From NCBI GenBank assembly GCA_937864005.1, contig CALMIL010000025.1, positions 2,162 through 66,161 on the forward strand: 64,000 nt of DNA. Reading direction: 5' to 3'. This document shows positions 1,110 through 30,003 of the stretch, piece by piece. Position numbers and translations under genes: made by a program. The number at the start of each line of letters is the position of its first letter. Position 1 is the stretch's first letter. The notes beneath the pieces were generated by a model. It was not told where the DNA came from and ran no database searches. It was given only the letters and a program-made list of their open reading frames with translations. This DNA comes from an uncultured Burkholderiales bacterium. GTDB taxonomy: Bacteria; Pseudomonadota; Gammaproteobacteria; Burkholderiales; Burkholderiaceae_C.

Positions 1110-1191
1110 ATTTGTTGTCGGCGGCGCTGTGGATCAGACGTTCAGCGCTTGCTTGATGACTGTGACGTATGAAGGGACGAAGGGGTCGGTC

Positions 1192-2592
1192 GTGAAAATC
1201 TTTCATCGGAGTGTTCTGCCTGGTTCTCTAGCCGGAATTGTGGTCGACCTCGTCTTGTGCTTTTCGGCGATGCTGCTTGCGGCGTCGACGCTCACCAGCA
1301 AGTACATGACGATTCCGCGCGCGGTGCCGGAGTTGCCACTCATCCTGTTCGGTGCTACCCAGTTTGCCCTGGTGACGGCGCTCATGTACGCCTTGGTTGG
1401 CCTGTACCGCCCGAACTCGATCTCGATGGTTGCCGCTGCGGTGCGCACCGCGGTAGCGCTTTGCATCGCCGGCTACGTGACGAGCCTGACTTTGCGGATC
1501 GTGGCCGACCGAGGTTACATCGAGCTTCTCATACCGACCGCGATTGCCTACCTCGGCGTAGGGCTCGTCCTGGCGCGCGTGGGCTTCGCCGTCATGCGAA
1601 GCACCGTGGCCTTGCCAAAGCTGCTGATCGTGGGTACCAGCCCCGAAGCCCGTGCGATCGCCGCGGACCTGCGCAAGCAAAAGCCACTCGCCCACGACGT
1701 GATCGGCTTTTATTCGGCCACTCGATCGCCGCAGAAGGCCGGTGCGACGATCGACGGGCTGCGCGTGTTTCCGAACGACACGAATCTGACCGAGTTGGCC
1801 TCGCGCTTGGACGTCCAGGAAATCATCGTCGCCGTCCGTGAGCAGCGGGGCGGCGGCCTGCCGATGGACCAGTTGTTGGAGTGCCGTATCCGTGGCGTGT
1901 CGGTGCTCGACCTCGCCGGGTTTTGTGAACGCACCAAAGGGGAAGTGCCCATCGACAGCTTGAAGGGCAGCTGGCTTGTTTACGGTCACGGCTTCGTCCA
2001 AGGCAACCTGCGCCGTTTCCTGAAGCGTCTGTTCGACATCGTCGGTTCCTTGGTGCTGTTGGTGCTGTCGGCACCGGTCATGATCCTTGCGATGCTCGCG
2101 ATCCGGCTCGATAGCCCCGGGCCCGTGATCTATCGTCAGGCACGCGTCGGCCTCGGCGGCCGGGTCTTCACATGCCCGAAGCTGCGCAGCATGTGCGTGA
2201 ACGCCGAGCAAGACGGCGTCGCAAAGTGGGCGTCCAAGGACGACCCGCGGATCACCCGGCTCGGCGCCTTCTTCCGCAAGACGCGGATCGACGAACTGCC
2301 GCAGCTCTTGAGCGTGCTCAAGGGCGATATGAGCCTGGTGGGACCCCGTCCGGAACGCCCCTCCTTCGTCGACGAACTCAAGGAAAGCATTCCGTTTTAT
2401 GAGTTGCGCCATTCGGTGAAGCCCGGAATCACCGGCTGGGCGCAGGTTCGTTTTCACTACGGTGCGTCGCTCGAGGATGCAAAGCGAAAGCACCAGTTCG
2501 ACTTGTACTACGTCAAGAACAATTCACTTGTTCTGGACATTCTCGTCCTGATCGAAACGGTCAGCGTGGTATTGTTTTACGAGGGCCATTGA
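1192..2592 (+). CDS. Polyprenyl-phosphate sugar phosphotransferase (bacterial sugar transferase family; EpsB/WbaP-like priming enzyme of the PEP-CTERM locus type)
   Basis: Several N-terminal TM helices are followed by the C-terminal catalytic domain: ...RITRLGAFFRKTRIDELPQLLSVLKGDMSLVGPRPERP...KPGITGWAQV...DLYYVKNNSLVLDILVLIETV. The track ORF starts at 1129 (GTG). I prefer the in-frame GTG at 1192 (VKIFHRS...), preceded by gaagggacgaagggg. Confidence 0.85.
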   Translation: MKIFHRSVLPGSLAGIVVDLVLCFSAMLLAASTLTSKYMTIPRAVPELPLILFGATQFALVTALMYALVGLYRPNSISMVAAAVRTAVALCIAGYVTSLTLRIVADRGYIELLIPTAIAYLGVGLVLARVGFAVMRSTVALPKLLIVGTSPEARAIAADLRKQKPLAHDVIGFYSATRSPQKAGATIDGLRVFPNDTNLTELASRLDVQEIIVAVREQRGGGLPMDQLLECRIRGVSVLDLAGFCERTKGEVPIDSLKGSWLVYGHGFVQGNLRRFLKRLFDIVGSLVLLVLSAPVMILAMLAIRLDSPGPVIYRQARVGLGGRVFTCPKLRSMCVNAEQDGVAKWASKDDPRITRLGAFFRKTRIDELPQLLSVLKGDMSLVGPRPERPSFVDELKESIPFYELRHSVKPGITGWAQVRFHYGASLEDAKRKHQFDLYYVKNNSLVLDILVLIETVSVVLFYEGH

Positions 2593-2721
2593 GTGCCTCG
2601 GATACCCCACAACACGACCGACATCTTGGAAGCACGCCCAGACTTCGAGCTGTTTCTGGCGGCCGGTTTGGTGGCCGCGGCTGCGCCGACCGTCGAATGG
2701 CAGGAATCGAAGGGATAGGCG

Positions 2722-3342
2722 ATGAACGACAACAGGCACGATGACGGGGAGCCTTCCGCAGCTGTGGACGATCGCGTGCCCATCTCGCCGCAACCTGACG
2801 CGCGCGCGCAGCGCGTCGCGTCGCGCCGCTACATGCTCCTCAAGGGCGCCACGAGGGGCGCGGCCATCCTGGCCGCAGCCACGCCAATCAAGACGCTTGC
2901 GTCCATCCCCTCGGTGACATCCAAAGTCGACGGATTGCTCTGCACGATTTCAGGTACCCATTCTGGCGTGATTTCAGCGAAGACGAGTTTGCCGATATGT
3001 GGCGGCAAGAGTCCGGGCTATTACAAGAAGCTTGAGAATTGGCCCAACTACCCTACAACTTCCTACGCACCGACTGGCTGCCCGTCTTTCAACCAGAACA
3101 CTACGTTTAATAGCCTGTTCGGCGCTTCCACATCGGTGGGCACAGGAGGGTTATGGCATATCATGAAAACGCCGCCGCACAACAATCCAGAGTTCCACTG
3201 GATTGTCGCGTTGCTCAACGCAATCGCTGCGACTCCCGGAGGGAACGTCTTCCCGTACGACCCAAGAGAAGTGCTTGATCTGTATGCCAGTTCGCAAAGT
3301 GCAGACGCGCTTGAGTTCTTCAAGAAGTTCATGGAGAGTTGA
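2722..3342 (+). CDS. Hypothetical secreted protein with a twin-arginine (Tat) signal peptide
   Basis: ATG preceded by aaggga. The N-terminus has SRRYMLLKGATRGAAILAAATPIKTLA/S, which fits S-R-R-x-F-L-K plus an h-region and AxA-like site. The mature part has 4 Cys and is visibly AT-richer than its neighbours (31/60 and 32/60 G+C in the lines at 3061 and 3001). I recognise no family. Confidence 0.6.
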   Translation: MNDNRHDDGEPSAAVDDRVPISPQPDARAQRVASRRYMLLKGATRGAAILAAATPIKTLASIPSVTSKVDGLLCTISGTHSGVISAKTSLPICGGKSPGYYKKLENWPNYPTTSYAPTGCPSFNQNTTFNSLFGASTSVGTGGLWHIMKTPPHNNPEFHWIVALLNAIAATPGGNVFPYDPREVLDLYASSQSADALEFFKKFMES

Positions 3343-3388
3343 TGGGTAGACCCTCGAGGGCCTCTCCTGGTGATCACTTGCGCCCTCG

Positions 3389-3664
3389 GTGTTGTTGCGC
3401 GTCCGTCCCGGCGTCCGCCTGAGTTGGCGTCATTGGGGCTGCGACTGGGTCGCCTTCGATGAGGCGTCGGGCGACACCCACGAGATGGGCGAGCTGACGG
3501 CCTGTGCACTGCTTTGCCTCGAGGAGGGCCCGCTGGACCTTGCGACGCTCGTCGCGGAAGTGGCGGCTGCTGCATCCCAGCCTGAAGAGGCGATTCGGGA
3601 TTCGCTGCAGGATGCGATTGCACAATTGACTCGGCTGGGGCTGGTGGATACCGTGCCGCAATGA
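3389..3664 (+). CDS. PqqD-family protein (RiPP-recognition-element-like peptide chaperone)
   Basis: 91 aa with a GTG start. The W..W..D.VAFDEASGDTHEMGELTA..L pattern and acidic C-terminal helices are typical of PqqD homologues. Its stop overlaps the next start (ATGA at 3661-3664). Confidence 0.7.
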   Translation: MLLRVRPGVRLSWRHWGCDWVAFDEASGDTHEMGELTACALLCLEEGPLDLATLVAEVAAAASQPEEAIRDSLQDAIAQLTRLGLVDTVPQ

Positions 3665-4578
3665 CGCCGTCGTCGTTGGGTCTTGACGAGATCGGCCGCA
3701 GGCTGCGCGGTGCCGGTTTCGCGATGAGGACCGGCCCGTTCAACTTTCGGATCCGTTCCTCGATTGCGTCGGTGGCGTCGGGCCTCGCCCTGCTCTACGA
3801 CGACTATCCGCTGGCCGGCGACGACGAATTCGTCGATTTCGAGGTGCATCTGGAGCGGGGCGCCGGGGTTCGACGCTGGATACGACCGCAAGTGCGCTTT
3901 CTCTACGACGGGAGGTCGCCGTTCGAGCCCTTGCCGATGGGCCACGCGGTGCCGTTGATGGAGTGGGCAATGAACTGGTGCATCTCTTCGCAGGCACACC
4001 AGTACCTGATACTGCACGCAGCCGTCACCGAGCGCGACGGGCTGGCGGCGATTCTTGCCGCGCCGCCCGGGTCCGGCAAGAGCACGCTGTGCGCAGGGCT
4101 GATAAGCCGAGGCTGGCGCCTCTTGTCCGACGAGCTCGCCCTGATCTCCCCGAAGGATGGTTCGATCGTGCCGCTGTGCCGACCCGTGAGCCTGAAGAAC
4201 CAGTCGTTGTCGGTGATGCGCGCGTTCGAGCCGAGTGCCGAATTCAGCGATGTCACGCATGACACGATCAAGGGGTCGGTCTGCCACATGAAGATTCCGA
4301 CACGCCATCTCGATCGAATCGAGGAGCGCGCGAGGCCGGGATGGGTCGTGTTTCCAAAGTACGTCAAGGATGCGCCGGCCCGTCTGACGCCGCGGTCGCG
4401 CGCCAACAGCATGCTCGAGCTGGGGCGCAATGCCTTCAACTACACATTGCTCGGCCGCACCGGTTTCGAGACGCTGGCCGACGTGATCACGGCAAGCGAA
4501 TGTCATGACTTCGAGTACGGCTCGCTGGACGAAGCGGTTCGCGTCTTCGATGCGCTCGTCGAGGCTCGACGCCAGTGA
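3661..4578 (+). CDS. HPr kinase/phosphorylase-related P-loop kinase (HprK-related kinase)
   Basis: 305 aa with the P-loop LAAPPGSGKSTLCAGLISRGWRLLSDEL, characteristic of the HPr-kinase C-terminal domain fold. It is translationally coupled on both sides (ATGA at 3661, GTGA at 4575). Confidence 0.75.
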   Translation: MTPSSLGLDEIGRRLRGAGFAMRTGPFNFRIRSSIASVASGLALLYDDYPLAGDDEFVDFEVHLERGAGVRRWIRPQVRFLYDGRSPFEPLPMGHAVPLMEWAMNWCISSQAHQYLILHAAVTERDGLAAILAAPPGSGKSTLCAGLISRGWRLLSDELALISPKDGSIVPLCRPVSLKNQSLSVMRAFEPSAEFSDVTHDTIKGSVCHMKIPTRHLDRIEERARPGWVVFPKYVKDAPARLTPRSRANSMLELGRNAFNYTLLGRTGFETLADVITASECHDFEYGSLDEAVRVFDALVEARRQ

Positions 4579-5663
4579 GGGACGTTCTGCTTGCGCGCCT
4601 GTGGGCGGACCCCTCGAAGTGGTGGGCCGCGCTGTCACCGCGGGCTTGGGAGACCTTGCTCAGCCAGGCGCGGCAAACGCGGCTGCAAGCGCGCCTGGCC
4701 TGGCACTTTCTTGATCGAGGGCAGATGGCGGAGGTGCCGAAAGGCCCGCGCCACCATCTGGAAAGCGCGTTGCGACTCGCCGAGCGCCAGCGCAATGAAG
4801 TACTTTGGGAGATCGAATGCATCCGGCGTGCGCTGGCGACGGTCGACACGAAGATCGTGCTGCTGAAGGGCGCCGCCTACCTTTCAGCCGCACTCCCCCC
4901 AGCGCCAGGGAGGTTGTTCTCCGACGTCGACATCATGGTCGATCGTCGGCAGATCGGCTCGGTCGAAGGCGCGCTGTTCGCCTCGGGGTGGCTCAGCCAG
5001 GAACGCGATTCGTACAACGACCGCTACTATCGCCGCTGGATGCATGAGTTGCCGCCGATGCGCCATGTTCGGCGCGGAACGACGATCGACGTCCATCACA
5101 CGATCACGCCGCCTACGTCGCGCTTCAAGGTCGATGGCGTCCGGCTGCTCGAAAGGCTGCGCCCGGCCGAGGGCGAGCCGGGCCTGTTCGTATTGGGGCC
5201 CGCCGACATGGTGCTCCACAGCGCGGCGCACCTGTTCCAGGAAGGCGAGTTCGGCCATGGCCTGCGCGACTTGCTCGACCTGAACGACTTGTTGTTGCAC
5301 TTCGGACGACAGGCCGGCTTCTGGAACGAACTGCTGGACCGAGCTCATGAACTGCGGCTGCAGGTTCCGCTCTCGCACGCCCTCACCCATGTCTCGCGCG
5401 TGTTCTCCACGTCAGCGCCACCCGCGCTTGCCGCGCGCGTGCGATCCCTTGACGGCAGGCGGTTCAGGGGCCTGCTGATGACGCAAATGCTGGGCATTGC
5501 GTTGCGCCCCGAGCACCCGAGTTGCGACGGGCCGCTTTCCGGGCCGGTCCGCTGGCTGCTCTATCTCAGATCGCACTGGCTGCGCATGCCGCCCCATCTG
5601 CTGGTCTACCATCTGGGCCGGAAGATGGTGATGCGGCTGAATTCGAACGCGACGAGTTCCTAG
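4575..5663 (+). CDS. Uncharacterised nucleotidyltransferase-family protein (NTP_transf_5-like)
   Basis: 362 aa. The signature VLLKGAAYLSAALPPAPGRLFSDVDIMVDR ... TIDVHHTITP matches the pattern I recall for the 'uncharacterised nucleotidyltransferase' family, often seen beside PqqD and HprK-like genes. The GTG start overlaps the upstream stop (GTGA). Confidence 0.6.
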   Translation: MRDVLLARLWADPSKWWAALSPRAWETLLSQARQTRLQARLAWHFLDRGQMAEVPKGPRHHLESALRLAERQRNEVLWEIECIRRALATVDTKIVLLKGAAYLSAALPPAPGRLFSDVDIMVDRRQIGSVEGALFASGWLSQERDSYNDRYYRRWMHELPPMRHVRRGTTIDVHHTITPPTSRFKVDGVRLLERLRPAEGEPGLFVLGPADMVLHSAAHLFQEGEFGHGLRDLLDLNDLLLHFGRQAGFWNELLDRAHELRLQVPLSHALTHVSRVFSTSAPPALAARVRSLDGRRFRGLLMTQMLGIALRPEHPSCDGPLSGPVRWLLYLRSHWLRMPPHLLVYHLGRKMVMRLNSNATSS

Positions 5664-5726
5664 CCCCTCGCGATGAAGAGGCGGGGTCATGCCGCGCAGT
5701 GGTCGCGCCCAGGCCGGGAGTCTGAA

Positions 5727-6527
5727 ATGTTCTTGACCGCTCCATGGTTTGGCCGGCGACTGCGATGGCTCGCACTGGCCGCAGCTTGCGCTGGTCACGC
5801 GCTATTCGCCGTCGCGGCCGACCGCTTGCCGGATGTGATCGAGCGCATCAAGCCGTCGGTGTTGGCGGTCGGATTCTTCAACGAGACGCAGAGCCCTCGC
5901 TTCGTCTTCCGGGGCACCGGCTTCGTTGTCGGAGACGGAAACCTTCTCGTCACGTGTTCCCATGTCGCGGATAGCGACACCCAGCCCGGCAAGACGGGGC
6001 GCCTGGTCGTCCTTTCGAGCAACGGCAGGGGCGCGGGTCAGATCCGCCAGGCCGACGTGCTGGAGGTCGACAAGGAGCACGACCTCACCGTGTTGCGCTT
6101 CGATGGCAAACCGCTACCGGCGCTCGACCTTCGCAAGGCAGCGCCGATTCGCGAAGGCGAGTCGGTGGCATTCATGGGCTTTCCATTGGGAGGCGCGCTT
6201 GGTTTTGCGCCGGTCACGCACCGCGGCATGGTCTCGTCCATCACATCCGTCGCGTTGCCGAGCCCGACAGCGCAACAGCTCGACTCCCGAGCGATCAGCC
6301 GCCTCAGAGAAGGCGCATTCGAGATGCTCCAGCTCGACGCGACCGCATACCCCGGCAACAGCGGAGGCCCGTTGTTCGACGCGGAAACGGGAGCGATCGT
6401 CGGCGTGGTCAACATGGTCACACTCAAGGGGACGCGTGAATCTGCCTTGACCCATCCTTCGGGCATCAGCTACGCGATCCCGGTGGAATTCGTCCTCCAA
6501 CTGGGGGCTCTGCGCGCAAACAAATGA
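5727..6527 (+). CDS. Secreted trypsin-like serine protease (S1 family, DegP-like catalytic domain, no PDZ)
   Basis: Signal peptide MFLTAPWFGRRLRWLALAAACAGHALFAVAA. Catalytic triad context: TCSHVA (His), HDLTVLRF (Asp), GNSGGPLF (Ser). I chose the ATG at 5727 because of the GGGAG RBS 6 nt upstream. The track ORF starts at 5673. Confidence 0.8.
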   Translation: MFLTAPWFGRRLRWLALAAACAGHALFAVAADRLPDVIERIKPSVLAVGFFNETQSPRFVFRGTGFVVGDGNLLVTCSHVADSDTQPGKTGRLVVLSSNGRGAGQIRQADVLEVDKEHDLTVLRFDGKPLPALDLRKAAPIREGESVAFMGFPLGGALGFAPVTHRGMVSSITSVALPSPTAQQLDSRAISRLREGAFEMLQLDATAYPGNSGGPLFDAETGAIVGVVNMVTLKGTRESALTHPSGISYAIPVEFVLQLGALRANK

Positions 6528-6569: not shown

Positions 6570-7934
6570 CTACTGGATCGACAAGCGGCGCATCAGATCG
6601 TAAAGCGTCGGGCGCGTCACACCGAGGATCTCGGAAGCCTTCACGATATTGCCGTTCGCGCGGGCGAGCGCGGCGACAACCGCACCGCGCTCCGCCTTCT
6701 CGCGTACCGCACGCAGATCGAGCAGGGGATCACCCTCGAGCTGCGCGTCGCTCGGCCTGGGCAGGCCGAGGTCTTCGCTGGTCACCCGATTGCCGTCGGC
6801 CATGATCGCGACCCGCTTGATCGTGTTCAGCAACTCCCGCACGTTTCCGGGCCAGGCATAGGCGTCGATCGCCGACAGCGCGTCTTCGCTGAAGCTCATC
6901 GAACTGCGGTTCTGCTCGCGTGCGAACCTGCGCAGGAAGGCCTGGGCGAGCAGCACGGCATCACCCTGCCGGCTTCGCAGCGGCGGGATGTCGATGACGA
7001 TCTCCGCCAGCCGGTAGTAGAGGTCCTGCCTGAAGCGGTTCGTCTTGATGAATTCGGCCAGATCCTGATGCGTTGCGCAGACCACCCGGACGTCGACCGC
7101 TATCACGTTGCGCCCGCCAAGACGTTCGATCGTGCGCTCCTGCAGAAAGCGCAGCAGCTTGGCCTGCAGCGACTGGGGAAGGTCGCCGATCTCGTCGAGC
7201 ATCAGCGTGCCGCCGTTGGCGGTCTCGATGCGTCCGATCGTGCTCTTGGAGGCGCCGGTGAACGCGCCCCTCTCGTAGCCGAACAGTTCGCTTTCGAGAA
7301 GGTTCTCGGGAATCGCCGCACAGTTGATCGCAACAAACTTGCCGCTCCGCTTCGACAAGTGGTGGAGCGCCTGCGCGAGTACCTCCTTGCCCGTTCCGCT
7401 TTCGCCGAGCAACAGCACCGAGGCATCGCTGGGCGCGATCTTCTCGATGGTGCGGCAGATCCGCAGCAGATCGGCGTCTCGCGTCACGAGCCCGGCGAGC
7501 GCGTCGGGCTGCTTCATTTCCCGCAGGCGCCGGTTCTCGCTTTGCAACTCGGACAGGCGAAACGCCCGATCGATGATGAGGCCCAGCAGGTCGGGATCGA
7601 AGGGCTTGGCAAGGAAATCGTAGGCGCCGAGGTCGATCGCACGCAATGCATTGCCCTGGTCGTTCTGGCCGGTCAGGACGATGACCTTCACCTCCGGGTC
7701 GAGTTCGAGCATCTGGACCAGCAGCCTGAAGCCCTCCTGCGCCGTGTCGGGGTCCGGCGCAAGCCCGAGGTCCATCGTCACCACGGCGGGCGAATGGCGG
7801 CGAAACTGGGCCAGCGCGCTTTCCCCGTCGTTCGCAGTGACCGACTCGAATCGATCGAGCGACCACTTGATCTGCTTTTGGAGCGCGAGGTCGTCCTCGA
7901 CGATCAGCAGCGGAGGCCTTTTTTCCGGATTCAT
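6570..7934 (-). CDS. prsR: Sigma-54-dependent response regulator (PEP-CTERM-box response regulator PrsR type)
   Basis: Receiver domain (PLLIVEDDLALQKQIKWSL, ...VTMDLGL). AAA+ domain with Walker A LLLGESGTGKE and the sigma-54 contact motif ERGAFTGA. C-terminal HTH ILGVTRPTLYDLMRRL. Located in an XrtA locus. Confidence 0.85.
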   Translation of the reverse strand: MNPEKRPPLLIVEDDLALQKQIKWSLDRFESVTANDGESALAQFRRHSPAVVTMDLGLAPDPDTAQEGFRLLVQMLELDPEVKVIVLTGQNDQGNALRAIDLGAYDFLAKPFDPDLLGLIIDRAFRLSELQSENRRLREMKQPDALAGLVTRDADLLRICRTIEKIAPSDASVLLLGESGTGKEVLAQALHHLSKRSGKFVAINCAAIPENLLESELFGYERGAFTGASKSTIGRIETANGGTLMLDEIGDLPQSLQAKLLRFLQERTIERLGGRNVIAVDVRVVCATHQDLAEFIKTNRFRQDLYYRLAEIVIDIPPLRSRQGDAVLLAQAFLRRFAREQNRSSMSFSEDALSAIDAYAWPGNVRELLNTIKRVAIMADGNRVTSEDLGLPRPSDAQLEGDPLLDLRAVREKAERGAVVAALARANGNIVKASEILGVTRPTLYDLMRRLSIQ

Positions 7935-17553: not shown

Positions 17554-17819
17554 GAGGTTGAGAGGCAACCCAATGCACCCGCGTAAGCCCCCAGAACAGG
17601 CTCAAACAAGGCGCAAACCGGAGCTGGGTTCGGAACCCAGCGAGGATTTGAAACGCGGGGTGAGCCTGTTCTGGGGGCTTACCCGCAGGGCCAGGGTATC
17701 CAAGGGCCCTGCGCGACGTTGCATCGCTTGCCCGCACGCGAGTGCGGGCAGCGCGCTGCGCCTTGCTCAGGGCCCTTGGCCACCCCGGCGCGGGCGCATT
17801 GGGTTGCCCCTCAACCTCT
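17553..17819. repeat. 267-bp nested inverted-repeat element (MITE/REP-like or structured RNA) between the glycosyltransferase stop and xrtA
   Basis: The 31-bp terminal arms 17553-17583 and 17789-17819 are reverse complements at 29/31 positions. Inside is a perfect 21-bp pair (17584-17604 / 17661-17681) enclosing the hairpin CTGGGTT-cgg-AACCCAG. A perfect 12-bp pair (17700-17711 / 17768-17779) encloses the hairpin GCCCGCAC-gcga-GTGCGGGC. Confidence 0.8.
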
Positions 17820-17838
17820 GAGCGGACATGGAAGCAAC

Positions 17839-19422
17839 ATGAGCACCGTCGCTGCCGACCTGCGCACCGCCTCCGGATGGCGAGCCGCCTTGCCCGCGTT
17901 CATGGCGCTCGTGGCGGCGATCCTTCTGCTCTATCGCGAAACCGCGATGGCGATGGTCGGCATCTGGTGGCGCTCGGAGACCTTCACCCATGCCTTCCTC
18001 GTCGTGCCGATCGCCTTGTGGCTGGTCTGGCGCAAGCGCGAACAACTCGCCGCCCTCACGCCACGCGCGCAGCCCTGGGTGTTGCTGCCGCTGCTCGCGG
18101 CGGCGGTGGTCTGGTTCGTGTCGGATCTGGTCGTCGTCAACGCCGCGTCGCAGTTCGCGTTCGTGGCGATGCTCGTTCTGGCCGTGCCGGCGGTGCTGGG
18201 CCTCGAAGTGGCGCTCACGATCCTCTTCCCGTTGCTGTTCCTGTTCTTCGCCGTGCCGTTCGGCGAGTTCGTCGTGCCCGTCTTGATGGAGTGGACGGCC
18301 GATTTCACCGTCACTGCGCTTCGAGCGACCGGCGTGCCGGTCTTTCGCGAGGGACAGCACTTCATCATTCCATCGGGCAGTTGGTCGGTGATCGACGAAT
18401 GCAGCGGCGTGCGCTACCTGATGGCGTCGTTCATGGTCGGAACGCTCTTTGCGTACCTCAACTACAGCTCGTACCTGCGGCGCGCGGTCTTCATGCTGCT
18501 CTCGATCCTGGTGCCGATCGTCGCCAACTGGCTGCGCGCCTACATGATCGTGATGCTCGCTCACCTGTCGGACAACACGATCGCCACCGGCGTCGATCAC
18601 ATCCTGTACGGCTGGGTCTTCTTCGGCGCGATCATCTTCATCCTCTACATCGTCGGCGCCCGCTGGTCGCAGCCCGACGCGGCGCCGGCAAGCGCGGGCA
18701 CGCCCGGCAGGATGCGCGGCTTCGGCGGCACCGGATCCGCGTCGACCCGCGTGATGCTCGCCACCGCGCTCGGCGCTGCCGTCATCGTCACCCTGCCCCC
18801 GCTCGCCGTCGGCGGCCTGCAGCGCGCCGAAGGCACCGCCGCCGCGGCCACCGTCGATCTGCCGATGCACCTGGCCGGCGGCTGGTCCGCCGAAGGTGCC
18901 CAAATCGCCTCATGGACGCCGATGTTCGGCGACCCCTCCGCCGCCGCGAACCAGGTCTATGCAGGCCCGGCAGGCACGGTAGGCGTCCACCTTGCCTACT
19001 ACCGCGGCCAGGGCGAGGGCCGCAAGGTGGTCAGCTCGCAGAACATGCTCGTCGGCATGCGCGATCGCGAGTGGAGCCTGCCGGTCGTCGGCGATGACCG
19101 CACCGTCGCGATGGGGCCGCAGGCCGTCACGGTGCGCACAGCCGAGATCCTCGGCCAACCGCAGGCCGGCTCCGAGCACCGGCCGCACCTCGTCGTCTGG
19201 CGCTTCTACTGGATCGACGGCCGCTTCATCGCAGGCGATGCCGCAGCCAAGATTGCCGGCGTGCTGGCGCGGCTGCGGGGCCACGGCGACGAGGGCGCGG
19301 CGATCGTTCTCTACGCCGACGGCAAGACGGTGGCGGCGTCGAACGCCGCGCTCGAAGCCTTCATGCAGGCCAATCTGGGCAGCTTCGAGACGCTGTTGCG
19401 GCGCACGCGCGACGCGCGCTGA
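17839..19422 (+). CDS. xrtA: Exosortase A (XrtA) fused to an EpsI-family domain
   Basis: The ATG at 17839 gives MSTVAADLRTASGW...YRETAMAMVGIWWRSETFTHAFLVVPIALWLVW. There are about 8 TM helices with exosortase catalytic contexts VIDECSGVRYL (Cys), VANWLRAY (Arg) and VDHILYGWVFF (His). The C-terminal ~200 aa (...WTPMFGDPSAAANQVYAG...VHLAYYRGQGEGRKVVSSQN...) look like EpsI. The upstream 40 codons of the track ORF lie inside the palindromic element. Confidence 0.85.
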   Translation: MSTVAADLRTASGWRAALPAFMALVAAILLLYRETAMAMVGIWWRSETFTHAFLVVPIALWLVWRKREQLAALTPRAQPWVLLPLLAAAVVWFVSDLVVVNAASQFAFVAMLVLAVPAVLGLEVALTILFPLLFLFFAVPFGEFVVPVLMEWTADFTVTALRATGVPVFREGQHFIIPSGSWSVIDECSGVRYLMASFMVGTLFAYLNYSSYLRRAVFMLLSILVPIVANWLRAYMIVMLAHLSDNTIATGVDHILYGWVFFGAIIFILYIVGARWSQPDAAPASAGTPGRMRGFGGTGSASTRVMLATALGAAVIVTLPPLAVGGLQRAEGTAAAATVDLPMHLAGGWSAEGAQIASWTPMFGDPSAAANQVYAGPAGTVGVHLAYYRGQGEGRKVVSSQNMLVGMRDREWSLPVVGDDRTVAMGPQAVTVRTAEILGQPQAGSEHRPHLVVWRFYWIDGRFIAGDAAAKIAGVLARLRGHGDEGAAIVLYADGKTVAASNAALEAFMQANLGSFETLLRRTRDAR

Positions 19423-20833: not shown

Positions 20834-22774
20834 ATGTGCGGCATCACCGGCATCTTCGACACTCGCGGCGAGCGTGCGATCGACCGCGGCGCGCTGCAGC
20901 GCATGAACGACTCGCAGTTCCACCGCGGCCCGGACGAAGGCAGCGTGCATGTCGAGCCCGGCCTCGGCTTCGGCCACCGGCGCCTGTCGATCATCGACAT
21001 CGCCACCGGCCAGCAGCCGCTGTTCAACGAAGACGGCTCCGTCATCGTCGTCTTCAACGGCGAGATCTACAACTTCCAGGAACTGATTCCCGAACTGCAG
21101 GCCGCCGGCCATCGCTTCCACACCAGGAGCGACACCGAGGTCATCGTCCACGCGTGGGAGCAATGGGGCGAGGCGTGCGTAGAGCGTTTTCGCGGCATGT
21201 TCGCCTTCGCACTGTGGGACCGCAACCGGCAGACGCTCTTCATGGCGCGCGACCGGCTGGGCGTGAAGCCCCTGTACTACGCGCTGCTGGACGACGGCAG
21301 GCTGCTGTTCGGCTCCGAACTCAAGGCGCTGCTCGCGCACGGCGGCCTGAGGCGCGACATCGACCCGCTGGCGGTGGAGGAGTATTTCGCGCTCGGCTAC
21401 GTGGCCGAGCCGCGCACGATCTTCCGCCAGGCGAAGAAGCTGCCGCCGGCGCATTCGCTGGTGATTCGCCGCGGCGAGCCGATGGGTGAGCCCAGGCCGT
21501 ACTGGGACGTGCGCTTCACGCTCGGCAGCCCGATCAGCGCCGAAGACGCCTGCGCCGAGTTGGTTCATCGCCTGCAGGAATCGGTCAGGCTGCGCATGAT
21601 CGCGGAGGTACCACTGGGCGCCTTCCTGTCGGGCGGCGTCGATTCCAGCGCCGTGGTGGCGACGATGGCGGGCCTGTCGGACGGCCCCGTGAACACCTGC
21701 TCGATCGCCTTCGACGACCCCAAGTTCAACGAGAGCGCGTTCGCGCAAATGGTGGCCGACCGCTACCGTACCGACCACCGCGTGGAGACCGTCAAGAGCG
21801 ACGACTTCGACCTCATCGATACGCTGGCCCGCCTGTACGACGAGCCCTATGCCGACAGCTCGGCGATCCCCACCTACCGCGTCTGCCAACTCGCGCGCAA
21901 GCACGTGACGGTCGCGCTCTCGGGCGACGGCGGCGACGAGACCTTCGGCGGCTACCGCCGCTACCGCCTGCACCTGATGGAAGAGCGCATGCGCTCTGCA
22001 CTGCCCGCCGGCATCCGCCAGCCGCTCTTCGGGCTGCTCGGCCGCGCCTACCCCAAGGCCGACTGGGCGCCGCGCGTGTTGCGCGCCAAGACCACGTTCG
22101 AAGGCATGGCGCGCACTTCGGTGGAGGCGTACTTCCACTCGGTGTCGATCCTGCGCGGCCCGATGCGCGCGCGACTCTTCAGCGATGCGCTCGAGCATGA
22201 GCTGTCCGGCTACAGCGCGCAAGAGGTGTTCGACTTGCACGCCGGCCGCGCCGGCACCGACGACCCGCTGGCACTGATCCAGTACCTCGACATGAAGACC
22301 TATCTGGTGGGCGACATCAACACCAAGGTCGACCGCGCCAGCATGGCGCATTCGCTCGAGGTGCGCGAGCCGCTGATGGACCACAAGCTCATCGAATGGC
22401 TGGCGACCTTGCCGTCATCCCTGAAGGTGCGCGGGCAGGAAGGCAAGTTCCTTCTCAAGAAGGCGATGGAGCCGCAACTGCCGAACGACGTGCTGTACCG
22501 GCCGAAGATGGGCTTCAGCGTCCCGCTGGCGCGCTGGTTCCGCGGGCCGCTGAAGCAGCGCGTGCGCAGCGCCGTGCTCGGCGAGCGGCTCGCGTCGACC
22601 GGCTGGTTCAACCGCGGCTACCTGCAGCACCTTGTCGATGCCCACCAGAGCGGCGCCAGCGACTACAGCTCGCCGCTGTGGACGCTGCTGATGTTCGAGG
22701 CGTTCCTGCGCAACGTGGTCGACGGCGCCACCGCAGCGCCGGCCGTTGCGCATGACGCGCAAGCCCTGGCATGA
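20834..22774 (+). CDS. Glutamine-hydrolysing asparagine synthase family amidotransferase (XrtA-system amidotransferase type)
   Basis: N-terminal nucleophile MCGITGIF, HRGPDE, and the PP-loop AFLSGGVDSSAVV. 646 aa. Confidence 0.9.
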   Translation: MCGITGIFDTRGERAIDRGALQRMNDSQFHRGPDEGSVHVEPGLGFGHRRLSIIDIATGQQPLFNEDGSVIVVFNGEIYNFQELIPELQAAGHRFHTRSDTEVIVHAWEQWGEACVERFRGMFAFALWDRNRQTLFMARDRLGVKPLYYALLDDGRLLFGSELKALLAHGGLRRDIDPLAVEEYFALGYVAEPRTIFRQAKKLPPAHSLVIRRGEPMGEPRPYWDVRFTLGSPISAEDACAELVHRLQESVRLRMIAEVPLGAFLSGGVDSSAVVATMAGLSDGPVNTCSIAFDDPKFNESAFAQMVADRYRTDHRVETVKSDDFDLIDTLARLYDEPYADSSAIPTYRVCQLARKHVTVALSGDGGDETFGGYRRYRLHLMEERMRSALPAGIRQPLFGLLGRAYPKADWAPRVLRAKTTFEGMARTSVEAYFHSVSILRGPMRARLFSDALEHELSGYSAQEVFDLHAGRAGTDDPLALIQYLDMKTYLVGDINTKVDRASMAHSLEVREPLMDHKLIEWLATLPSSLKVRGQEGKFLLKKAMEPQLPNDVLYRPKMGFSVPLARWFRGPLKQRVRSAVLGERLASTGWFNRGYLQHLVDAHQSGASDYSSPLWTLLMFEAFLRNVVDGATAAPAVAHDAQALA

Positions 22775-26538: not shown

Positions 26539-27924
26539 ATGATGCTTCGGTCTCGAATTGCCGGCGGTTTGATCTACCCGCTGCAGGAGCGCGTGTTTCG
26601 TCGCCCCACATTTGCCTACCTCGCTGAACTCGAGAAGAGCCAATGGCTGACGCGCAGCGCCGTCGAGGCATTGCAACTCGAGAAGCTGCGCGCGCTGTTG
26701 AATGTCGCGCGCGCTCATTCGCCCTGGCATCGAGCGCGCATGCAGGAGGCCGGACTCGAGCCCGACGCGACCACCAGCGTGGCGGACTTGCGCAAGCTGC
26801 CGCGAATGAACAAGCACGACGCCGCCGCCCATCGCGACGAGATCGTCTGGCAGGGCGTACCCGGTGGCGCGTTCAAGTACAACACCGGCGGCTCCAGCGG
26901 GCAGCCGCTGGTCTTTCACTTCGGGCGCTGGCGGCAGGCGTCCGACGCCGCCGGGCGCATGCGTGCACGGCGCTGGTGGGGGGTGGAACCCGGCGCGCCG
27001 GAGGTATACCTGTGGGGCGCCCCGGTCGAGCTGAACAAGACGGATTGGGTCAAGACGGTTCGCGACCGCCTCATCAACCAGCTTGTGCTCAATGCCTTTG
27101 CCATGTCGCCTGTGCACATGGACCGCTATCTCGATGCGATGGAGGCCTTCGGGCCGCACTGCGTTTACGGCTATGCCAGTTCGCTGGCGCTGTTGGCCGC
27201 GCACGCCAGGGCGCGCGGACGCAAGCCTCGCATGGCGCGGCTGAAGGTCGTTTGCGCTACGGGCGAGCCGCTGTACGACCACCAGCGCGCGCTGATCGGC
27301 GAGGTGTTCGGGGCGCCGGTGGCCAACGAATACGGCAGTCGCGACATCGGCTTCACCGCCCATGAAGCGCCGCAGGGCCAGCTGCTGCTGACGAGCGAGA
27401 GCATCATCCTCGAAGTGCTCGATGAGGCCGGCCAACCCGTCGCGCCGGGTGAGCTGGGCGAGGCGGTGATGACGGGGCTTTGCTCCGATGCGCAGCCGTT
27501 CATCCGCTACCGCACCGGCGACATGGTCCGCATGAATGCCACGCCAGACCCAGCCGGGCGGGGCCTGCACGTCATCGCCGAAGTCATCGGGCGGCAGACC
27601 GATTTCCTGGTCGGCGCCGACGGCACGATCATGCATGCCCTGGCCGGCATCTACGTCTTGCGCGCCACCGAGGGCGTGGCCGAGTTCAAGCTCATCCAGC
27701 ACGACCTGCGCGACATCGAGGTGCTGCTGGTGCCGGATGCGGGCTGGTCGCCCGCCGGTGCGGGCGCGATCGACGCCGGGCTGCGCCAACGTCTGGGGCA
27801 AGACGTGCGGGTTACCGTGCGTTTGGTTGACCAGATTGCACCCGAGGCGTCCGGCAAGCACCGCTACGTGGTGAGCCATGTGCCGCTCGGCGGTGAACTC
27901 GCACGCGCGACATCCACACACTGA
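26539..27924 (+). CDS. Adenylate-forming enzyme of the phenylacetate-CoA ligase / CapK / F390-synthetase family
   Basis: N-terminal helical region (...LEKSQWLTRSAVEALQLEKLRALL...), AMP-binding P-loop-like YNTGGSSGQPL, and YGSRDIG / RYRTGD motifs. Confidence 0.75.
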   Translation: MMLRSRIAGGLIYPLQERVFRRPTFAYLAELEKSQWLTRSAVEALQLEKLRALLNVARAHSPWHRARMQEAGLEPDATTSVADLRKLPRMNKHDAAAHRDEIVWQGVPGGAFKYNTGGSSGQPLVFHFGRWRQASDAAGRMRARRWWGVEPGAPEVYLWGAPVELNKTDWVKTVRDRLINQLVLNAFAMSPVHMDRYLDAMEAFGPHCVYGYASSLALLAAHARARGRKPRMARLKVVCATGEPLYDHQRALIGEVFGAPVANEYGSRDIGFTAHEAPQGQLLLTSESIILEVLDEAGQPVAPGELGEAVMTGLCSDAQPFIRYRTGDMVRMNATPDPAGRGLHVIAEVIGRQTDFLVGADGTIMHALAGIYVLRATEGVAEFKLIQHDLRDIEVLLVPDAGWSPAGAGAIDAGLRQRLGQDVRVTVRLVDQIAPEASGKHRYVVSHVPLGGELARATSTH

Positions 27925-27942
27925 TATTCGAACTCTCAGCGC

Positions 27943-29157
27943 ATGAACCTCACCGATCTGGTCCGGCTGCCCATCCGCTACAAACCCTGGCGACCTCGTC
28001 ATGTCGGCCTGGTGTGGGGCGACGTGCTCGGCAAGACGGGCGCACCGCAGCCTCACGAAGTGCATCTCCGCGCGGCCATCGACTGGCTGTGCCGGGCGCA
28101 GGACGTGCGCGATGGGCAGGCCGATGCAGGGGGCGTCTCGGCGGGCTGGAGTTTTGAAGACGGCTGGCTTCCGAGCTACCCGGAAACGACCGGCTACATC
28201 ATCGAGACCCTGCTTGCCGCGGCCAAGGTCCTGCAACGCCCCGAACTGGTGGCGCGGGCGCAGCGGATGATCGACTGGGAGCTCTCGATCCAGTTGCCCG
28301 ACGGTGCCTTCCCCGGCCATTTCGGCGAGGCAGGCAGCCGGCCGGTGATCTTCAATACGGGGCAGATCATGCATGGCATGGTCGCCGGCCACACCCAACT
28401 GCAACGGCCCGAGTGTCTGCCCGCCGCCGTGCGCGCCGGGCACTGGCTGGCGGACCAGCAAGACGACGACGGCTGCTGGCGCAAGTTCGAGCACAACGAC
28501 ACACCTCACGTCTACAACACGCGCGCCGCGTGGCCCTTGCTCGCGACCGGGCTGCTCGCCGGCGACAAGCGCCTGGTGCATGCGGCGCGGCGCAATCTCG
28601 ACTGGGCGCTCACTCAACAGACCGCTTGCGGCTGGTTTGCGACCAATGCCTTCGTTCCCGGTCGCGCACCGTTCACGCACACCATCGCCTACGCCATTCG
28701 CGGCTTCCTCGAGTCGGGTGTGCTGCTCGGCGACGCGCGCTATCTGGACGCAGCGCTCGAGGCCGCACGCGGCGTCGCGGCGGTACAGCGCGCCGACGGC
28801 TGGCTGGCCGGAACCTACCGGGACGGCTGGGTGCCCGCCGCCCGCTATGCCTGCCTGACCGGCGTGGCGCAGATGAGCCTGAACTGGACCCGCCTGGCGC
28901 AGGCCGCGGGGGCCGAAGCACTGCGCGCCCACGCCCGCACCGCGCTGAGCTATCTGAAGACGAACCACGCGCTGACCCACGCCGACCCGGCGGTGCGCGG
29001 CGGCATCGCTGGCTCCGCGCCCATCTGGGGCGGCTACTCGCGCTTCGAGTATCCCAACTGGGCGGCCAAGTTCTTCGCCGACGCGCTGATGATGGATCTG
29101 CAGGACATCGCCATCCCGCCCGTGCCCGACATCGCGCCTCGAGTCCATCATGGCTGA
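27943..29157 (+). CDS. Hypothetical alpha/alpha-toroid protein with prenyltransferase/squalene-cyclase-like repeats
   Basis: Four spaced Q-x-x-DG-x-(W/F) style repeats: SIQLPDGAFPG, DQQDDDGCWRKF, QQTACGWFATN, VQRADGWLAGTY. No signal peptide seen. The family call is tentative. Confidence 0.5.
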   Translation: MNLTDLVRLPIRYKPWRPRHVGLVWGDVLGKTGAPQPHEVHLRAAIDWLCRAQDVRDGQADAGGVSAGWSFEDGWLPSYPETTGYIIETLLAAAKVLQRPELVARAQRMIDWELSIQLPDGAFPGHFGEAGSRPVIFNTGQIMHGMVAGHTQLQRPECLPAAVRAGHWLADQQDDDGCWRKFEHNDTPHVYNTRAAWPLLATGLLAGDKRLVHAARRNLDWALTQQTACGWFATNAFVPGRAPFTHTIAYAIRGFLESGVLLGDARYLDAALEAARGVAAVQRADGWLAGTYRDGWVPAARYACLTGVAQMSLNWTRLAQAAGAEALRAHARTALSYLKTNHALTHADPAVRGGIAGSAPIWGGYSRFEYPNWAAKFFADALMMDLQDIAIPPVPDIAPRVHHG

Positions 29158-29992
29158 GGGCACGAAGACATTGCGGGTGCTGGTGCTGTGCGGGCGCAGC
29201 CCGCGACATCTGTACGTCGCCAACACGCTGTGCCAGGCCGCCGAAGTGCTTGCAATCGTGCAGGAATCAGGTTCGGAGTTCTCGTGGAAGAAGCTCGCCC
29301 GGACCCTGCGCCCCGACAACTTCTCACGCAAGGCCTGGCGCTGGCTGCGCGACCGGCGCCGCTATACCGGCAACCGCGAGGAGCGGTTCTTCTTTGGCGA
29401 ACGCCGTGCACAACTCGACCACCCCGGCCTGGTGAGGGAAGTGCCGCACATCAACCACCCGGACGTGGTGGCCTTGGCACGCGAGCTCGAGCCCGACGTC
29501 ATCGCCGTCTTCGGCACGTCGCTGATCCGCGGTGACCTGCTGGGAATGGGCCGGCTCGGCATGGCCAACCTGCATGGCGGGCTTTCGCCGCAATACCGCG
29601 GTGCAGACTGTACCTTCTGGGCGCTCTACAACGGCGAGCCGCAAAGCATCGGCTGCACGCTGCACTGGATCGACGCCGGCATCGACACCGGCGGACTGAT
29701 CGCCCATGTCAGCCCGAAGATCCTGCCCGACGACGACGAACTGAGCCTCTTCTGGCGCAGTGTGCAGACCAGCGCCGGCGTCTACGCCGAGCTGTTGCGG
29801 CGACTGGCGGCCGGCGAGCGCTTCGGTCAGACCCAGCCCGGCAAGGGCCGGCTGTATCAGGTGAAGCAGCGTGGATTGCGCGAGGAGCAGGTCGTTGCGC
29901 GACGGTTGCAGGAAGGCCTGCTGCAGGGCCTGGATCTCGACGCGCGAGTCAACTGGTACCCGTCGTCGCCGGCGTCCTCGGCGCCGGCTTGA
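29150..29992 (+). CDS. Formyltransferase-family protein (Fmt/PurN-like N-terminal domain)
   Basis: DVIAVFGTSLIRGDLL..., NLHGGLSPQYRGADCTFWAL, HWIDAGIDTGGLIA: the Asn/His/Asp formyl-transfer motif context. Confidence 0.75.
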   Translation: MAEGTKTLRVLVLCGRSPRHLYVANTLCQAAEVLAIVQESGSEFSWKKLARTLRPDNFSRKAWRWLRDRRRYTGNREERFFFGERRAQLDHPGLVREVPHINHPDVVALARELEPDVIAVFGTSLIRGDLLGMGRLGMANLHGGLSPQYRGADCTFWALYNGEPQSIGCTLHWIDAGIDTGGLIAHVSPKILPDDDELSLFWRSVQTSAGVYAELLRRLAAGERFGQTQPGKGRLYQVKQRGLREEQVVARRLQEGLLQGLDLDARVNWYPSSPASSAPA

Positions 29993-30003
29993 GGCCCCCT
30001 CGG

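Follow-up and report, generated by a model that had tools for sequence, protein, structure and literature searches.

A four-gene module encoding a Tat-signal protein, a PqqD-family protein, an HprK-related kinase and a nucleotidyltransferase in a Burkholderiales exopolysaccharide locus

Organization of the locus

Which genes make up the cassette that lies between a priming glycosyltransferase gene and prsR in an uncultured Burkholderiales bacterium, and on what might its enzymes act? The window, a stretch of 64,000 nucleotides (contig CALMIL010000025.1 of assembly GCA_937864005.1), contains an XrtA/PEP-CTERM exopolysaccharide (EPS) locus in which the cassette is embedded. A first-pass annotation had grouped five same-strand open reading frames (ORFs) here, and had named the two flanking genes. 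All five ORFs are present between these flanks (Table 1), and profile searches against Pfam and NCBIfam verified the proposed families. Both overlapping junctions are also real: the stop codon of the PqqD gene overlaps the kinase start (ATGA, 3661-3664), and the GTG start of the nucleotidyltransferase (NTase) overlaps the kinase stop (GTGA, 4575-4578). No promoter-like or terminator-like site was seen between the stop of the glycosyltransferase gene and the gene of the Tat-signal protein. The protease ORF has alternative starts at 5673 and 5727, the latter ATG being supported by a Shine-Dalgarno sequence, GGGAG, that is located 7 nt upstream of it.

Table 1. Features of the cassette and its surroundings in the window
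Feature	Position	Strand	Evidence
XrtA/PEP-CTERM priming glycosyltransferase (EpsB_2)	1129..2592	+	TIGR03013, 453.6 bits vs 393
Tat-signal protein, 206 aa	2722..3342	+	ORF; candidate substrate of the cassette
Twin-arginine signal peptide, residues 34-60	2821..2901	+	S-R-R-Y-M-L-L-K, P55, T-L-A before predicted signal-peptidase cut
Conserved hydroxyl block, residues 74-95	2941..3006	+	C74-[ST]75-x-S77-G78-x2-S81-x3-S85 ... C93-x-G95
PqqD-family small protein, 91 aa	3389..3664	+	TIGR04353, 49.7 bits vs cut-off 35
HprK-related kinase A, 305 aa	3661..4578	+	TIGR04352, 391.8 bits vs 200
NTP_transf_5 nucleotidyltransferase, 362 aa	4575..5663	+	PF14907, 179.5 bits vs 31.2, E = 1.2e-52
Secreted trypsin-like (S1, Trypsin_2) serine protease	5727..6527	+	PF13365, 103 bits vs 27.6
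PrsR, PEP-CTERM-box sigma-54 response regulator	6570..7934	-	TIGR02915, 708.9 bits vs 502.6
XrtA	17719-19422		

The conserved four-gene unit

Analysis of 80 loci from named genomes revealed that the conserved unit comprises four genes, neither three nor five, which encode the Tat-signal protein, PqqD, HprK-related kinase A and the NTP_transf_5 NTase. In 76/80 loci, the genes of PqqD and the kinase are directly preceded by that of a Tat-signal protein homologue, the ORF of which ends less than 600 nt before the kinase, with a median gap of 328 nt that is occupied by the PqqD gene. Conversely, the enzymes are present in all nine loci that were retrieved via the Tat-signal protein (two sets, 3/3 and 6/6). 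Practically all of the 80 loci have the kinase and NTase genes directly next to each other, and the gene arrangement is far beyond chance. Unbiased ORF clustering of the same loci found no further gene in more than 27 of them, and PqqD is the sole conserved short ORF of the cassettes (67 loci).

The region in the window is one copy of this self-contained module, the composition of which is unchanged in non-EPS contexts. On a Vibrio plasmid and a Sphingomonas replicon, where kinase identity is 39% and 33%, respectively, a Tat-signal protein is still encoded upstream. The unit is widespread, and its enzyme triad belongs to the catalogued but uncharacterised 'HPr-rel-A' set, as the first-pass annotation had stated; this is borne out by the TIGR04352/TIGR04353 matches and by the PGAP names on orthologous loci. 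A literature search found no experimental, biochemical or genetic paper on the HPr-rel-A system, which now has a concrete substrate candidate.

Features of the Tat-signal protein

The Tat-signal protein is taken here as the founder of a family that the catalogues lack: it has no family match in Pfam, NCBIfam or PHROGs, and neither a sequence nor a fold relative in the PDB. The family consists of 180 representative clusters, all of about 200 residues, and the orthologues carry the annotation 'hypothetical protein'. In the AlphaFold2 model, residues 1-87 are disordered, whereas residues 88-206 (pLDDT ~90) are confidently predicted to fold into a helical domain, in which W107-P108, A163, N166 and P178-Y179 are near-invariant.

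After the twin-arginine motif SRRYMLLK come a moderately hydrophobic h-region (mean Kyte-Doolittle hydropathy of 0.44 over residues 41-57) and a predicted signal-peptidase site, TLA|S. Among 106-137 family members, R36 is invariant, and conservation reaches 90% or more at R35, L39, G46, P55 and A60, so that conservation of the signal region extends past the arginine pair to G46 and P55. C-terminal to the signal is the hydroxyl block, which we propose as the site of recognition and modification. In 137 representatives, S77, S81 and S85 are conserved in 100%, 99% and 96%, respectively, and an independent set derived from the loci gave 76/78, 75/78 and 71/78. The pLDDT is below 50 at residues 76-84, right beside the well-folded domain. 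The upstream protein of Vibrio, otherwise different, keeps this block as T/S/S.

Features of the PqqD-family protein, the kinase and the nucleotidyltransferase

The PqqD-family protein is presumed to be a peptide-binding chaperone of the RRE type, in line with the NCBIfam name of TIGR04353, 'HPr-rel-A system PqqD family peptide chaperone'. The kinase, a P-loop enzyme, belongs to the HPr kinase superfamily, to a family with more than 6,800 clusters and, by precomputed Pfam assignment, to PF27840 'ScmC'. Its Walker A motif PPGSGKST and the subsequent LLSDE are invariant, and align to the P-loop and the catalytic ADD of HprK/P (PDB 1jb1). The NTase combines a core of the Pol-beta type with a C-terminal domain made of helices (AlphaFold2 pLDDT of 89.5), and has the invariant residues K98-G99, D117-x-D119, H157-E158, D172 and H174-H175. 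Its nearest folds are ANT(2'')-Ia, LnuA and TM1012; these matches are weak, with TM-scores on the target of 0.5-0.63 and a best E of 7e-3.

A proposed mechanism and its alternatives

Of the suggestions made by the first-pass annotation, that of the neighbouring Tat-signal protein as a possible substrate gains most from the two-way linkage. Our best reading, with a probability of roughly 45%, is that the enzymes modify this protein in the cytoplasm before Tat export. [quoted passage not shown] The kinase might then phosphorylate one or more of the invariant serines, and the Pol-beta-type NTase might extend the phosphoserine to a phosphodiester, with a nucleotidyl or, as in pseudomycoidin, a hexosyl group. 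The folded, decorated protein would finally be exported through Tat, which can transport proteins already completed in the cytoplasm. Trimming or turnover of the product after export may be the task of the secreted S1 protease that is encoded next to the module in this window. The invariant G...DxD motif of the NTase and a fold closest to O-nucleotidylyltransferases acting on hydroxyls are consistent with such chemistry. There are also observations against it: the upstream Tat-signal protein of Sphingomonas is without the serine block, C74 is replaced by Ala in 9/78 locus-derived sequences, the Pfam PqqD model scores 19.5 bits, under its gathering score of 23.4, and the enzymes weakly matched by the NTase fold act on small molecules.

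The last point would suit a different assignment, in which the Tat-signal protein is not a substrate and instead a co-functioning periplasmic partner, either a binding protein or an enzyme, while the cytoplasmic trio acts elsewhere: on a sugar, on a lipid- or nucleotide-linked EPS precursor, or on a protein encoded outside the cassette, for instance one of the PEP-CTERM type. ANT(2'') and LnuA, which are structurally closest to the NTase, modify hydroxyls of small molecules, half of the loci belong to EPS clusters with much sugar chemistry, one locus (L081) has a PEP-CTERM gene directly beside the cassette, and the well-folded domain of the Tat-signal protein has near-invariant residues of its own. 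We nevertheless regard this assignment as doubtful. PqqD-family domains are peptide-binding modules, the module is intact where no EPS genes are found within 6-10 kb, and no other gene is conserved alongside it; moreover, the most conserved part of the Tat-signal protein is its disordered Ser-rich block, as is typical of an enzyme recognition site.

Linkage to the EPS locus bears on the unit as first described, a five-gene cassette dedicated to XrtA/EPS biology with the S1 protease processing the modified product. The five genes are indeed contiguous between epsB2 and prsR in the window as well as in the loci most closely related to it (L001, L003-L005), and both the protease and the Tat-signal protein are predicted to reach the periplasm. 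The gene-neighbourhood comparison upheld the place of the Tat-signal protein in this set and not that of the protease or of the EPS genes. The protease is present in 26/80 loci and absent from 54/80; where present, it lies less than 1.6 kb from the cassette in 23 of the 26 and less than 600 nt away, immediately adjacent, in 10, on either side and on either strand, including three loci without EPS markers. With so limited an occurrence, it is a facultative accessory neighbour rather than a core processing enzyme. XrtA-locus markers occur within 10 kb in 26/52 fully flanked loci and are absent from the other 26, so EPS linkage of the four-gene unit is frequent but facultative, and stand-alone cassettes adjoin such unrelated neighbours as restriction-modification genes and a prophage, leuS-lptE, and pst and phn genes. 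A dedicated five-gene EPS cassette is therefore unlikely.

The conservation of the signal peptide beyond what Tat targeting needs (G46, P55 and T/S58-L59-A60) would fit a further possibility, namely that PqqD serves as a Tat proofreading chaperone comparable to NapD, TorD and DmsD, while the kinase and the NTase assemble or attach a prosthetic group, derived from a nucleotide, on which the activity of the exported protein depends. The serines would then be a cofactor attachment site rather than carriers of a simple phosphate. Proteins exported by Tat typically contain cofactors that were inserted before they left the cytoplasm, and the signal is the sole region that the distant upstream proteins of Sphingomonas, Vibrio and betaproteobacteria have in common. 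However, PqqD is matched by PqqD-type models only, with no detectable relation to known Tat chaperone families, and no cofactor-biosynthesis genes are conserved alongside the cassette, which makes this version improbable; it refines the substrate reading rather than contradicting it.

A cryptic RiPP cluster, lasso-like or other, with a small unannotated peptide as its true precursor, is very improbable: the combination of PqqD, an HPr-kinase-like protein and a nucleotidyltransferase is otherwise known from lasso-peptide clusters, but no short ORF besides PqqD is conserved from -2 to +3 kb in the 80 loci, which rules out the small ORF once offered as an alternative substrate, the intergenic gaps are ~35-130 nt, no transglutaminase-type B2 protease was seen to accompany the cassette, and the only Asn-synthase-like gene, 16 kb away, encodes the XrtA amidotransferase (1097 bits on its own model; 265 bits on the lasso-cyclase model, with a cut-off of 525), in agreement with the absence of a lasso cyclase, B2 protease and small precursor noted earlier.

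Comparison with known systems

The NCBIfam 'HPr-rel-A system' (TIGR04352 and TIGR04353) is the same system, as the window proteins exceed both cut-offs and the NTP_transf_5 neighbour is present too. The catalogue names two proteins only, and the Tat-signal protein is matched by no model of either NCBIfam or Pfam; nor was any description of the system's substrate or function found.

At the superfamily level, the cassette resembles the lasso tailoring pair, the paeninodin kinase and PsmN of pseudomycoidin, which comes with a PqqD domain as well. There, HPr-kinase homologues phosphorylate a Ser of the lasso precursor, and the phosphate is subsequently decorated with hexoses by the nucleotidyltransferase (PMC8498205). 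Here, by contrast, cyclase, B2 protease and short precursor are all absent, and the candidate substrate is a Tat-exported protein of 206 residues. The rule for lasso kinases, which need a C-terminal Ser as acceptor, fails for the Tat-protein family, in which no C-terminal Ser is conserved; the acceptor must differ, and the lasso precedent is thus an analogy only.

The kinase shares with HPr kinase/phosphorylase (HprK/P) the P-loop domain with its Walker A and subsequent acidic motifs, yet scores only 17.5 bits on TIGR00679 (cut-off 240), has a different N-terminal domain and different partners, and stands in no HPr/PTS context. SynChlorMet ScmC (TIGR04249; PF27840) shows weak similarity around the P-loop; the kinase was rejected as its equivalog (33.6 bits vs a cut-off of 125), and radical-SAM partners are lacking here.

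NapD, TorD and DmsD are small cytoplasmic chaperones of Tat signal peptides that are encoded beside their Tat substrate. By likeness to them, the small protein of the cassette could hold the N-terminus of its substrate until maturation ends; however, PqqD/RRE belongs to a different fold family, and its partners are a kinase and an NTase instead of a cofactor-insertion machinery.

Finally, the solved structures closest in fold to the catalytic core of NTP_transf_5 are ANT(2'')-Ia and LnuA, which have the G...DxD metal site in common with it and transfer NMP to a hydroxyl; the match is of low significance (E = 0.04-0.3, ~10-15% identity), and NTP_transf_5 differs from both by a large extra helical domain of ~150 residues.

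Organization of the module within the XrtA locus

All five same-strand ORFs reported by the first-pass annotation are present at the coordinates it gave, and profile searches bear out the families to which it had assigned their products (see table). The three middle genes are translationally coupled as it described, with the PqqD stop and the kinase start overlapping in ATGA, and the kinase stop and the GTG start of the nucleotidyltransferase (NTase) in GTGA (4575-4578). Of the two possible protease starts, its choice of the ATG at 5727 is favoured because GGGAG lies 7 nt upstream. The cassette is flanked by a TIGR03013 priming glycosyltransferase and the PEP-CTERM-box regulator PrsR, both identified by profile search. 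Elsewhere the window carries a canonical XrtA locus, comprising an export protein, an associated ATPase, a deacetylase, a FemAB-like protein, the stp1/2/3 glycosyltransferases, an XrtA-EpsI fusion, an amidotransferase and an O-ligase. Neither a sigma-70-like site nor a terminator was seen between epsB2 and the Tat gene, and no sigma-54 -24/-12 site was found for the cassette, window-wide matches being at chance level.

Several further features of the window were recorded. A weak terminator-like hairpin (5-bp stem followed by AAATGTTCTT) occupies part of the gap that separates the NTase and protease genes, overlapping the protease Shine-Dalgarno region; such sites occur in the region at chance level. 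The signal peptide of the protease (MFLTAPWFGRRLRWLALAAACAGHALFAVAADR) has an RR pair ahead of its hydrophobic stretch, and judged by this motif the enzyme might be Tat- rather than Sec-targeted. The XrtA-EpsI fusion is a single 567-aa ORF, in which TIGR03109 covers residues 61-317 and TIGR02914 residues 386-555. Beyond the O-ligase, an AMP-dependent ligase-like gene (best match the DVU_1553 family, 104.7 bits versus a cut-off of 300), the formyltransferase-like gene that follows it and two ORFs with no NCBIfam match may constitute an acyl- or formyl-modification sub-cluster.

Features of the window and of homologous cassette loci from other genomes (L handles)
Feature	Sequence	Positions	Strand	Basis
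Tat-signal protein	window	2722-3342	same as the other four ORFs	ORF call
C-terminus of the Tat protein, ending ...FMES	window	3323-3342		
PqqD-like protein	window	3389-3664	same	TIGR04353 "HPr-rel-A system PqqD family peptide chaperone", 49.7 vs 35 bits
Kinase	window	3661-4578	same	TIGR04352 "HprK-related kinase A", 391.8 vs 200 bits, model 2-280 of 280
Nucleotidyltransferase (NTase)	window	4575-5663	same	PF14907 NTP_transf_5, E = 1.2e-52
Weak terminator-like hairpin	window	5710-5724		
Protease	window	5673 or 5727 to 6527	same	PF13365 Trypsin_2, 103 bits
Protease N-terminus	window	5727-5830		
XrtA-EpsI fusion	window	17719-19422		TIGR03109, TIGR02914
XrtA amidotransferase	window	20834-22774		TIGR03108
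Possible modification sub-cluster	window	26539-31242		
ORF, no NCBIfam match	window	27943-29157		
Formyltransferase-like gene	window	29150-29992		
ORF, no NCBIfam match	window	29989-31242		
~106-aa ORF	L044	12056-12376		
Region of the module and adjacent prophage	L082	12206-20582		
Region of the module, Vibrio alfacsensis plasmid	L088	10993-18381		
Region of the module, Sphingomonas parapaucimobilis replicon	L089	938-6774		

Recurrence of the four genes across genomes

The kinase belongs to a family of more than 6,800 sequence clusters, and relatives are encoded in at least 483 species-representative genomes, mostly of Burkholderiales, Nitrosomonadales and their relatives, with a few Alpha- and Gammaproteobacteria and one Nitrospirota MAG. 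With the kinase as query, the 80 best-scoring loci of species-representative genomes, dominated by Betaproteobacteria, were analyzed. The kinase and NTase are neighbours in 76-78 of 80 loci; tblastn mapping of the window proteins placed them side by side essentially everywhere, with PqqD immediately 5' of the kinase wherever it is detectable. An ORF of ~190-260 aa, usually with an RR motif, ends just 5' of PqqD in nearly every locus. A family profile HMM detected this Tat-family ORF less than 600 nt from the kinase in 76/80 loci. Its stop lies a median of 328 nt from the start of the kinase gene, a space that PqqD fills exactly.

Unbiased clustering of all ORFs of at least 100 aa in the 80 loci recovered the kinase in 80, the NTase in 76 and the Tat family in 71 (split over two BLAST clusters), followed by the sigma-54 regulator (27), the S1 protease (26), the export and chain-length proteins (20 each), PrsT (18) and EpsB2 (17). 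Among ORFs of 25-110 aa, clustering recovered PqqD alone (67 loci); all other short ORFs that recurred were shadow frames of the three large genes. Taken together, the long and short ORFs therefore define a module of four genes without a hidden precursor, and the proposal of the first-pass annotation that a small ORF could be the substrate falls away.

The linkage also holds in the converse direction. Downstream of each of three distant Tat-family members (E down to ~5e-7) come a small ORF and a PF27840 kinase, and NTP_transf_5 as well where the contig is long enough. Retrieval of metagenome loci via the Tat protein, which used a narrower alignment and yielded seven loci in total, gave PqqD plus kinase in 6/6 of those with enough downstream sequence. 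The four genes very probably form one functional unit. New here is an uncatalogued Tat-protein family as its obligate fourth component, bearing an invariant serine block.

Genomic context and the EPS linkage

Among the 52 loci with at least 8 kb on each side, XrtA-locus markers lie within 10 kb of the cassette in 26, so that consistent location in XrtA loci is not observed, though the window module is inside one. The Rhodoferax ferrireducens module has prsK-prsR-prsT before it and a PEP-CTERM gene after it. One complete stand-alone module (L082) has a type I restriction-modification system on one side and a filamentous (Inovirus-like) prophage on the other, another adjoins PS decarboxylase and exbBD-tonB, and a third adjoins leuS-lptE-holA. 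On the Vibrio alfacsensis plasmid (L088) a complete module stands beside the phosphonate-utilisation genes phnR, a 2-aminoethylphosphonate ABC transporter and phnW, and on the Sphingomonas parapaucimobilis replicon (L089) beside pstSCAB-phoU-phoB.

The S1 protease occurs in 26/80 loci; in 10 of these it lies within 600 nt of the cassette and in 23 within 1.6 kb, with no fixed side or strand, and it behaves as a facultative accessory. Of the three associations that the first-pass annotation asked about, that of the triad with the Tat protein held nearly throughout, and those with xrtA/prsR and with the protease are facultative. Its overall picture of five EPS-dedicated genes with a product processed by the protease fits the arrangement in the window and its nearest relatives; in view of the stand-alone modules and the irregular protease, we consider it improbable.

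Other observations concern individual lineages. The L082 cassette also neighbours hrcA and a resolvase, and the adjacent prophage encodes Zot, REP_ORF2-G2P and Phage_Coat_B. An anti-phage defence role was considered and set aside, as PADLOC returned no match for the four core proteins of the window. The two most distant annotated cassettes, L088 and L089, both adjoin phosphorus-acquisition genes, which could be coincidence or could point to a (phospho-)protein tied to phosphate physiology outside the EPS context. Fourteen loci of Thiobacillus/Hydrogenophilales type (L044 and, among others, L059, L063, L065, L071 and L076) share a conserved ~106-aa ORF directly 3' of the NTase; next, on the opposite strand, comes a divergent sigma-54 regulator with 36-37% identity to PrsR. 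In 11 loci of this type the Tat gene is also preceded by a conserved 287-aa ORF, and both ORFs could be lineage-specific additions to the module.

A conserved serine block in the Tat-signal protein

The Tat-signal protein, the gene of which is publicly annotated as "hypothetical protein" upstream of PqqD, matched no Pfam, NCBIfam or PHROGs family, either singly or over 106 members; profile searches found no sequence relative in the PDB, and Foldseek no fold match (best E = 2.1). An exhaustive HMMER search of 1.84 billion representatives returned only 180 clusters, all of ~200 aa. The family evolves fast, sharing 26-44% identity where the kinases share 51-70%. Its signal peptide appears to be of the twin-arginine type with an A-x-A-type cleavage site: R35-R36, L39-L40, G46, P55 and L59-A60 are invariant or nearly so (R36 invariant, R35 96%), and the window protein combines the motif SRRYMLLK with a moderately hydrophobic h-region and T-L-A ahead of the predicted cleavage site. 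The Pfam TAT_signal HMM fires in just 2/106 members.

After the signal peptide, 137 family members share the block C74, [ST]75, S77 (100%), G78, S81 (99%) and S85 (96%), followed by C93 and G95. An independent set of 77 locus-derived sequences gave S77 in 76/78, S81 in 75/78 and S85 in 71/78. The C-terminal part conserves W107-P108, W160, A163, N166 and P178-Y179. AlphaFold2, run on the 106-sequence alignment, predicts a confident helical domain for residues 88-206 (pLDDT ~90) and disorder for residues 1-87, with pLDDT < 50 across the serine block (76-84). The upstream protein of the Vibrio cassette is larger (271 aa) and Cys-rich, keeps SRRRFI and has a block that aligns as C-S-I-T-S-C-M-S-G-N-A-S, giving T/S/S at positions 77/81/85; that of the Sphingomonas cassette retains the Tat signal alone. 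A site at which an enzyme docks or acts would be expected to look like this: nearly invariant, and set in a predicted disordered stretch beside a signal peptide. On balance the Tat protein is somewhat favoured as the substrate, and the serine block is tentatively put forward as the site of modification.

A C-terminal serine acceptor, as used by lasso kinases, was rejected, just 18/137 family members ending in Ser. Many members share a near-C-terminal FF-K-x-[YF]-M-E-[TS] motif (YME[TS]) followed by 0-5 variable residues, and the window protein ends exactly there. From this pattern, the conserved hydroxyl could be a second modification site.

Enzymes and a proposed maturation pathway

PqqD scores 19.5 bits against Pfam PF05402, below the gathering score of 23.4, over model positions 2-67 of 67, and passes the dedicated subfamily model TIGR04353 despite this. 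The kinase has an invariant Walker A motif, PPGSGKST, and after it an equally invariant LLSDE; the two align with the P-loop and the catalytic acidic pair of Lactobacillus casei HprK/P (PDB 1jb1), the P-loop region alone being aligned (E = 0.013). The AF2 model of the NTase (pLDDT 89.5, pTM 0.89) has a core resembling the Pol-beta-type O-nucleotidylyltransferases ANT(2'')-Ia, LnuA and TM1012, with TM-scores on the target of 0.5-0.63; its top PDB neighbours are all Pol-beta-type NTases, the best at E = 7e-3 and none at E <= 1e-3. Across 59-65 orthologues K98-G99, D117-x-D119, H157-E158, D172 and H174-H175 are invariant, among them the residues of the hG[GS] ... DxD metal-binding motif. As read from their sequences, the kinase, PqqD and NTase have no signal peptide and must therefore act in the cytoplasm.

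We propose a four-step mechanism, transposed from lasso-peptide tailoring, to which we assign a probability of roughly 0.45. PqqD would bind the N-terminal region of the Tat protein, the kinase would phosphorylate S77, S81 and/or S85, the NTase would elaborate the phosphate, and Tat would export the folded, finished product. Both chemistry and biology are read here from synteny, motifs and predicted structure. More tentatively still, the module might represent a new class of RRE-guided protein maturation. Tat signal and serine block would together serve as the "leader"; in the cytoplasm the full-length protein would be phosphorylated on its Ser triad and then made into a phosphodiester, of nucleotidyl or glycosyl type, and Tat would be its dedicated export route. 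The product would be an extracellular or periplasmic poly-anionic phosphoprotein, working in many Betaproteobacteria with the PEP-CTERM/EPS floc matrix.

It is unlikely, and yet the most plausible alternative, that the Tat protein is not the substrate but a partner of the enzymes, which would act on another protein, on an EPS precursor or on a small molecule; the serine block speaks against this. A narrower possibility, which refines the four-step mechanism and to which we give little weight, is that PqqD acts as a Tat proofreading chaperone and a cofactor is attached at the serines. A cryptic small-peptide RiPP is scarcely credible with PqqD as the only conserved short ORF.

With the Tat protein recognized as the fourth conserved member, a cassette whose function was unknown yields an enzyme-substrate hypothesis open to direct test, involving three enzymes, a single protein and three candidate serines. 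If the maturation pathway is correct, RiPP-type recognition and tailoring chemistry would reach exported full-length proteins, covalent decoration in the cytoplasm would be a further reason for Tat dependence, and the XrtA/PEP-CTERM floc-formation loci, which matter in activated sludge, would gain a missing protein component.

Comparison with known systems

As the first-pass annotation had stated, the triad belongs to the catalogued HPr-rel-A set of NCBIfam: the kinase matches TIGR04352, the adjacent PqqD matches TIGR04353, and NTP_transf_5 is the neighbour. The literature searched describes neither function nor substrate; queries on the HPr-rel-A family names, PF14907, RRE with twin-arginine, and HPr kinase with exosortase retrieved nothing relevant, and the cassette genes go unmentioned in both the Haft 2006 PEP-CTERM paper and the Aquincola floc paper. 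The kinase fails TIGR00679 (17.5 versus 240 bits) and is not a true HPr kinase/phosphorylase. Compared to lasso clusters, the cassette lacks a short precursor gene (with a C-terminal Ser in kinase-tailored lassos), no transglutaminase-type leader protease (B2) was matched among the cassette proteins and their neighbours, and the lasso cyclase is absent, in agreement with the earlier reading. The only Asn-synthase homologue is the XrtA amidotransferase (TIGR03108, 1097 versus 817 bits), which reaches 265 versus 525 bits on the lasso-cyclase model NF033535. Because these defining features are lacking, the module is neither a lasso cluster nor an HprK/P system.

Lasso tailoring, the NTase of which likely belongs to PF14907, is the only experimentally grounded precedent found. 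There, a serine in the linear precursor receives a phosphate from an HPr-kinase homologue, and in the case of pseudomycoidin this phosphate is extended with one or two hexoses by a nucleotidyltransferase (PMC8498205; PMC7533575). The leader/core organization of RiPP precursors is mirrored by the conserved N-terminus and divergent body of the Tat family. Altogether, the module apparently represents RRE-associated kinase/NTase tailoring redirected to a Tat-exported protein.
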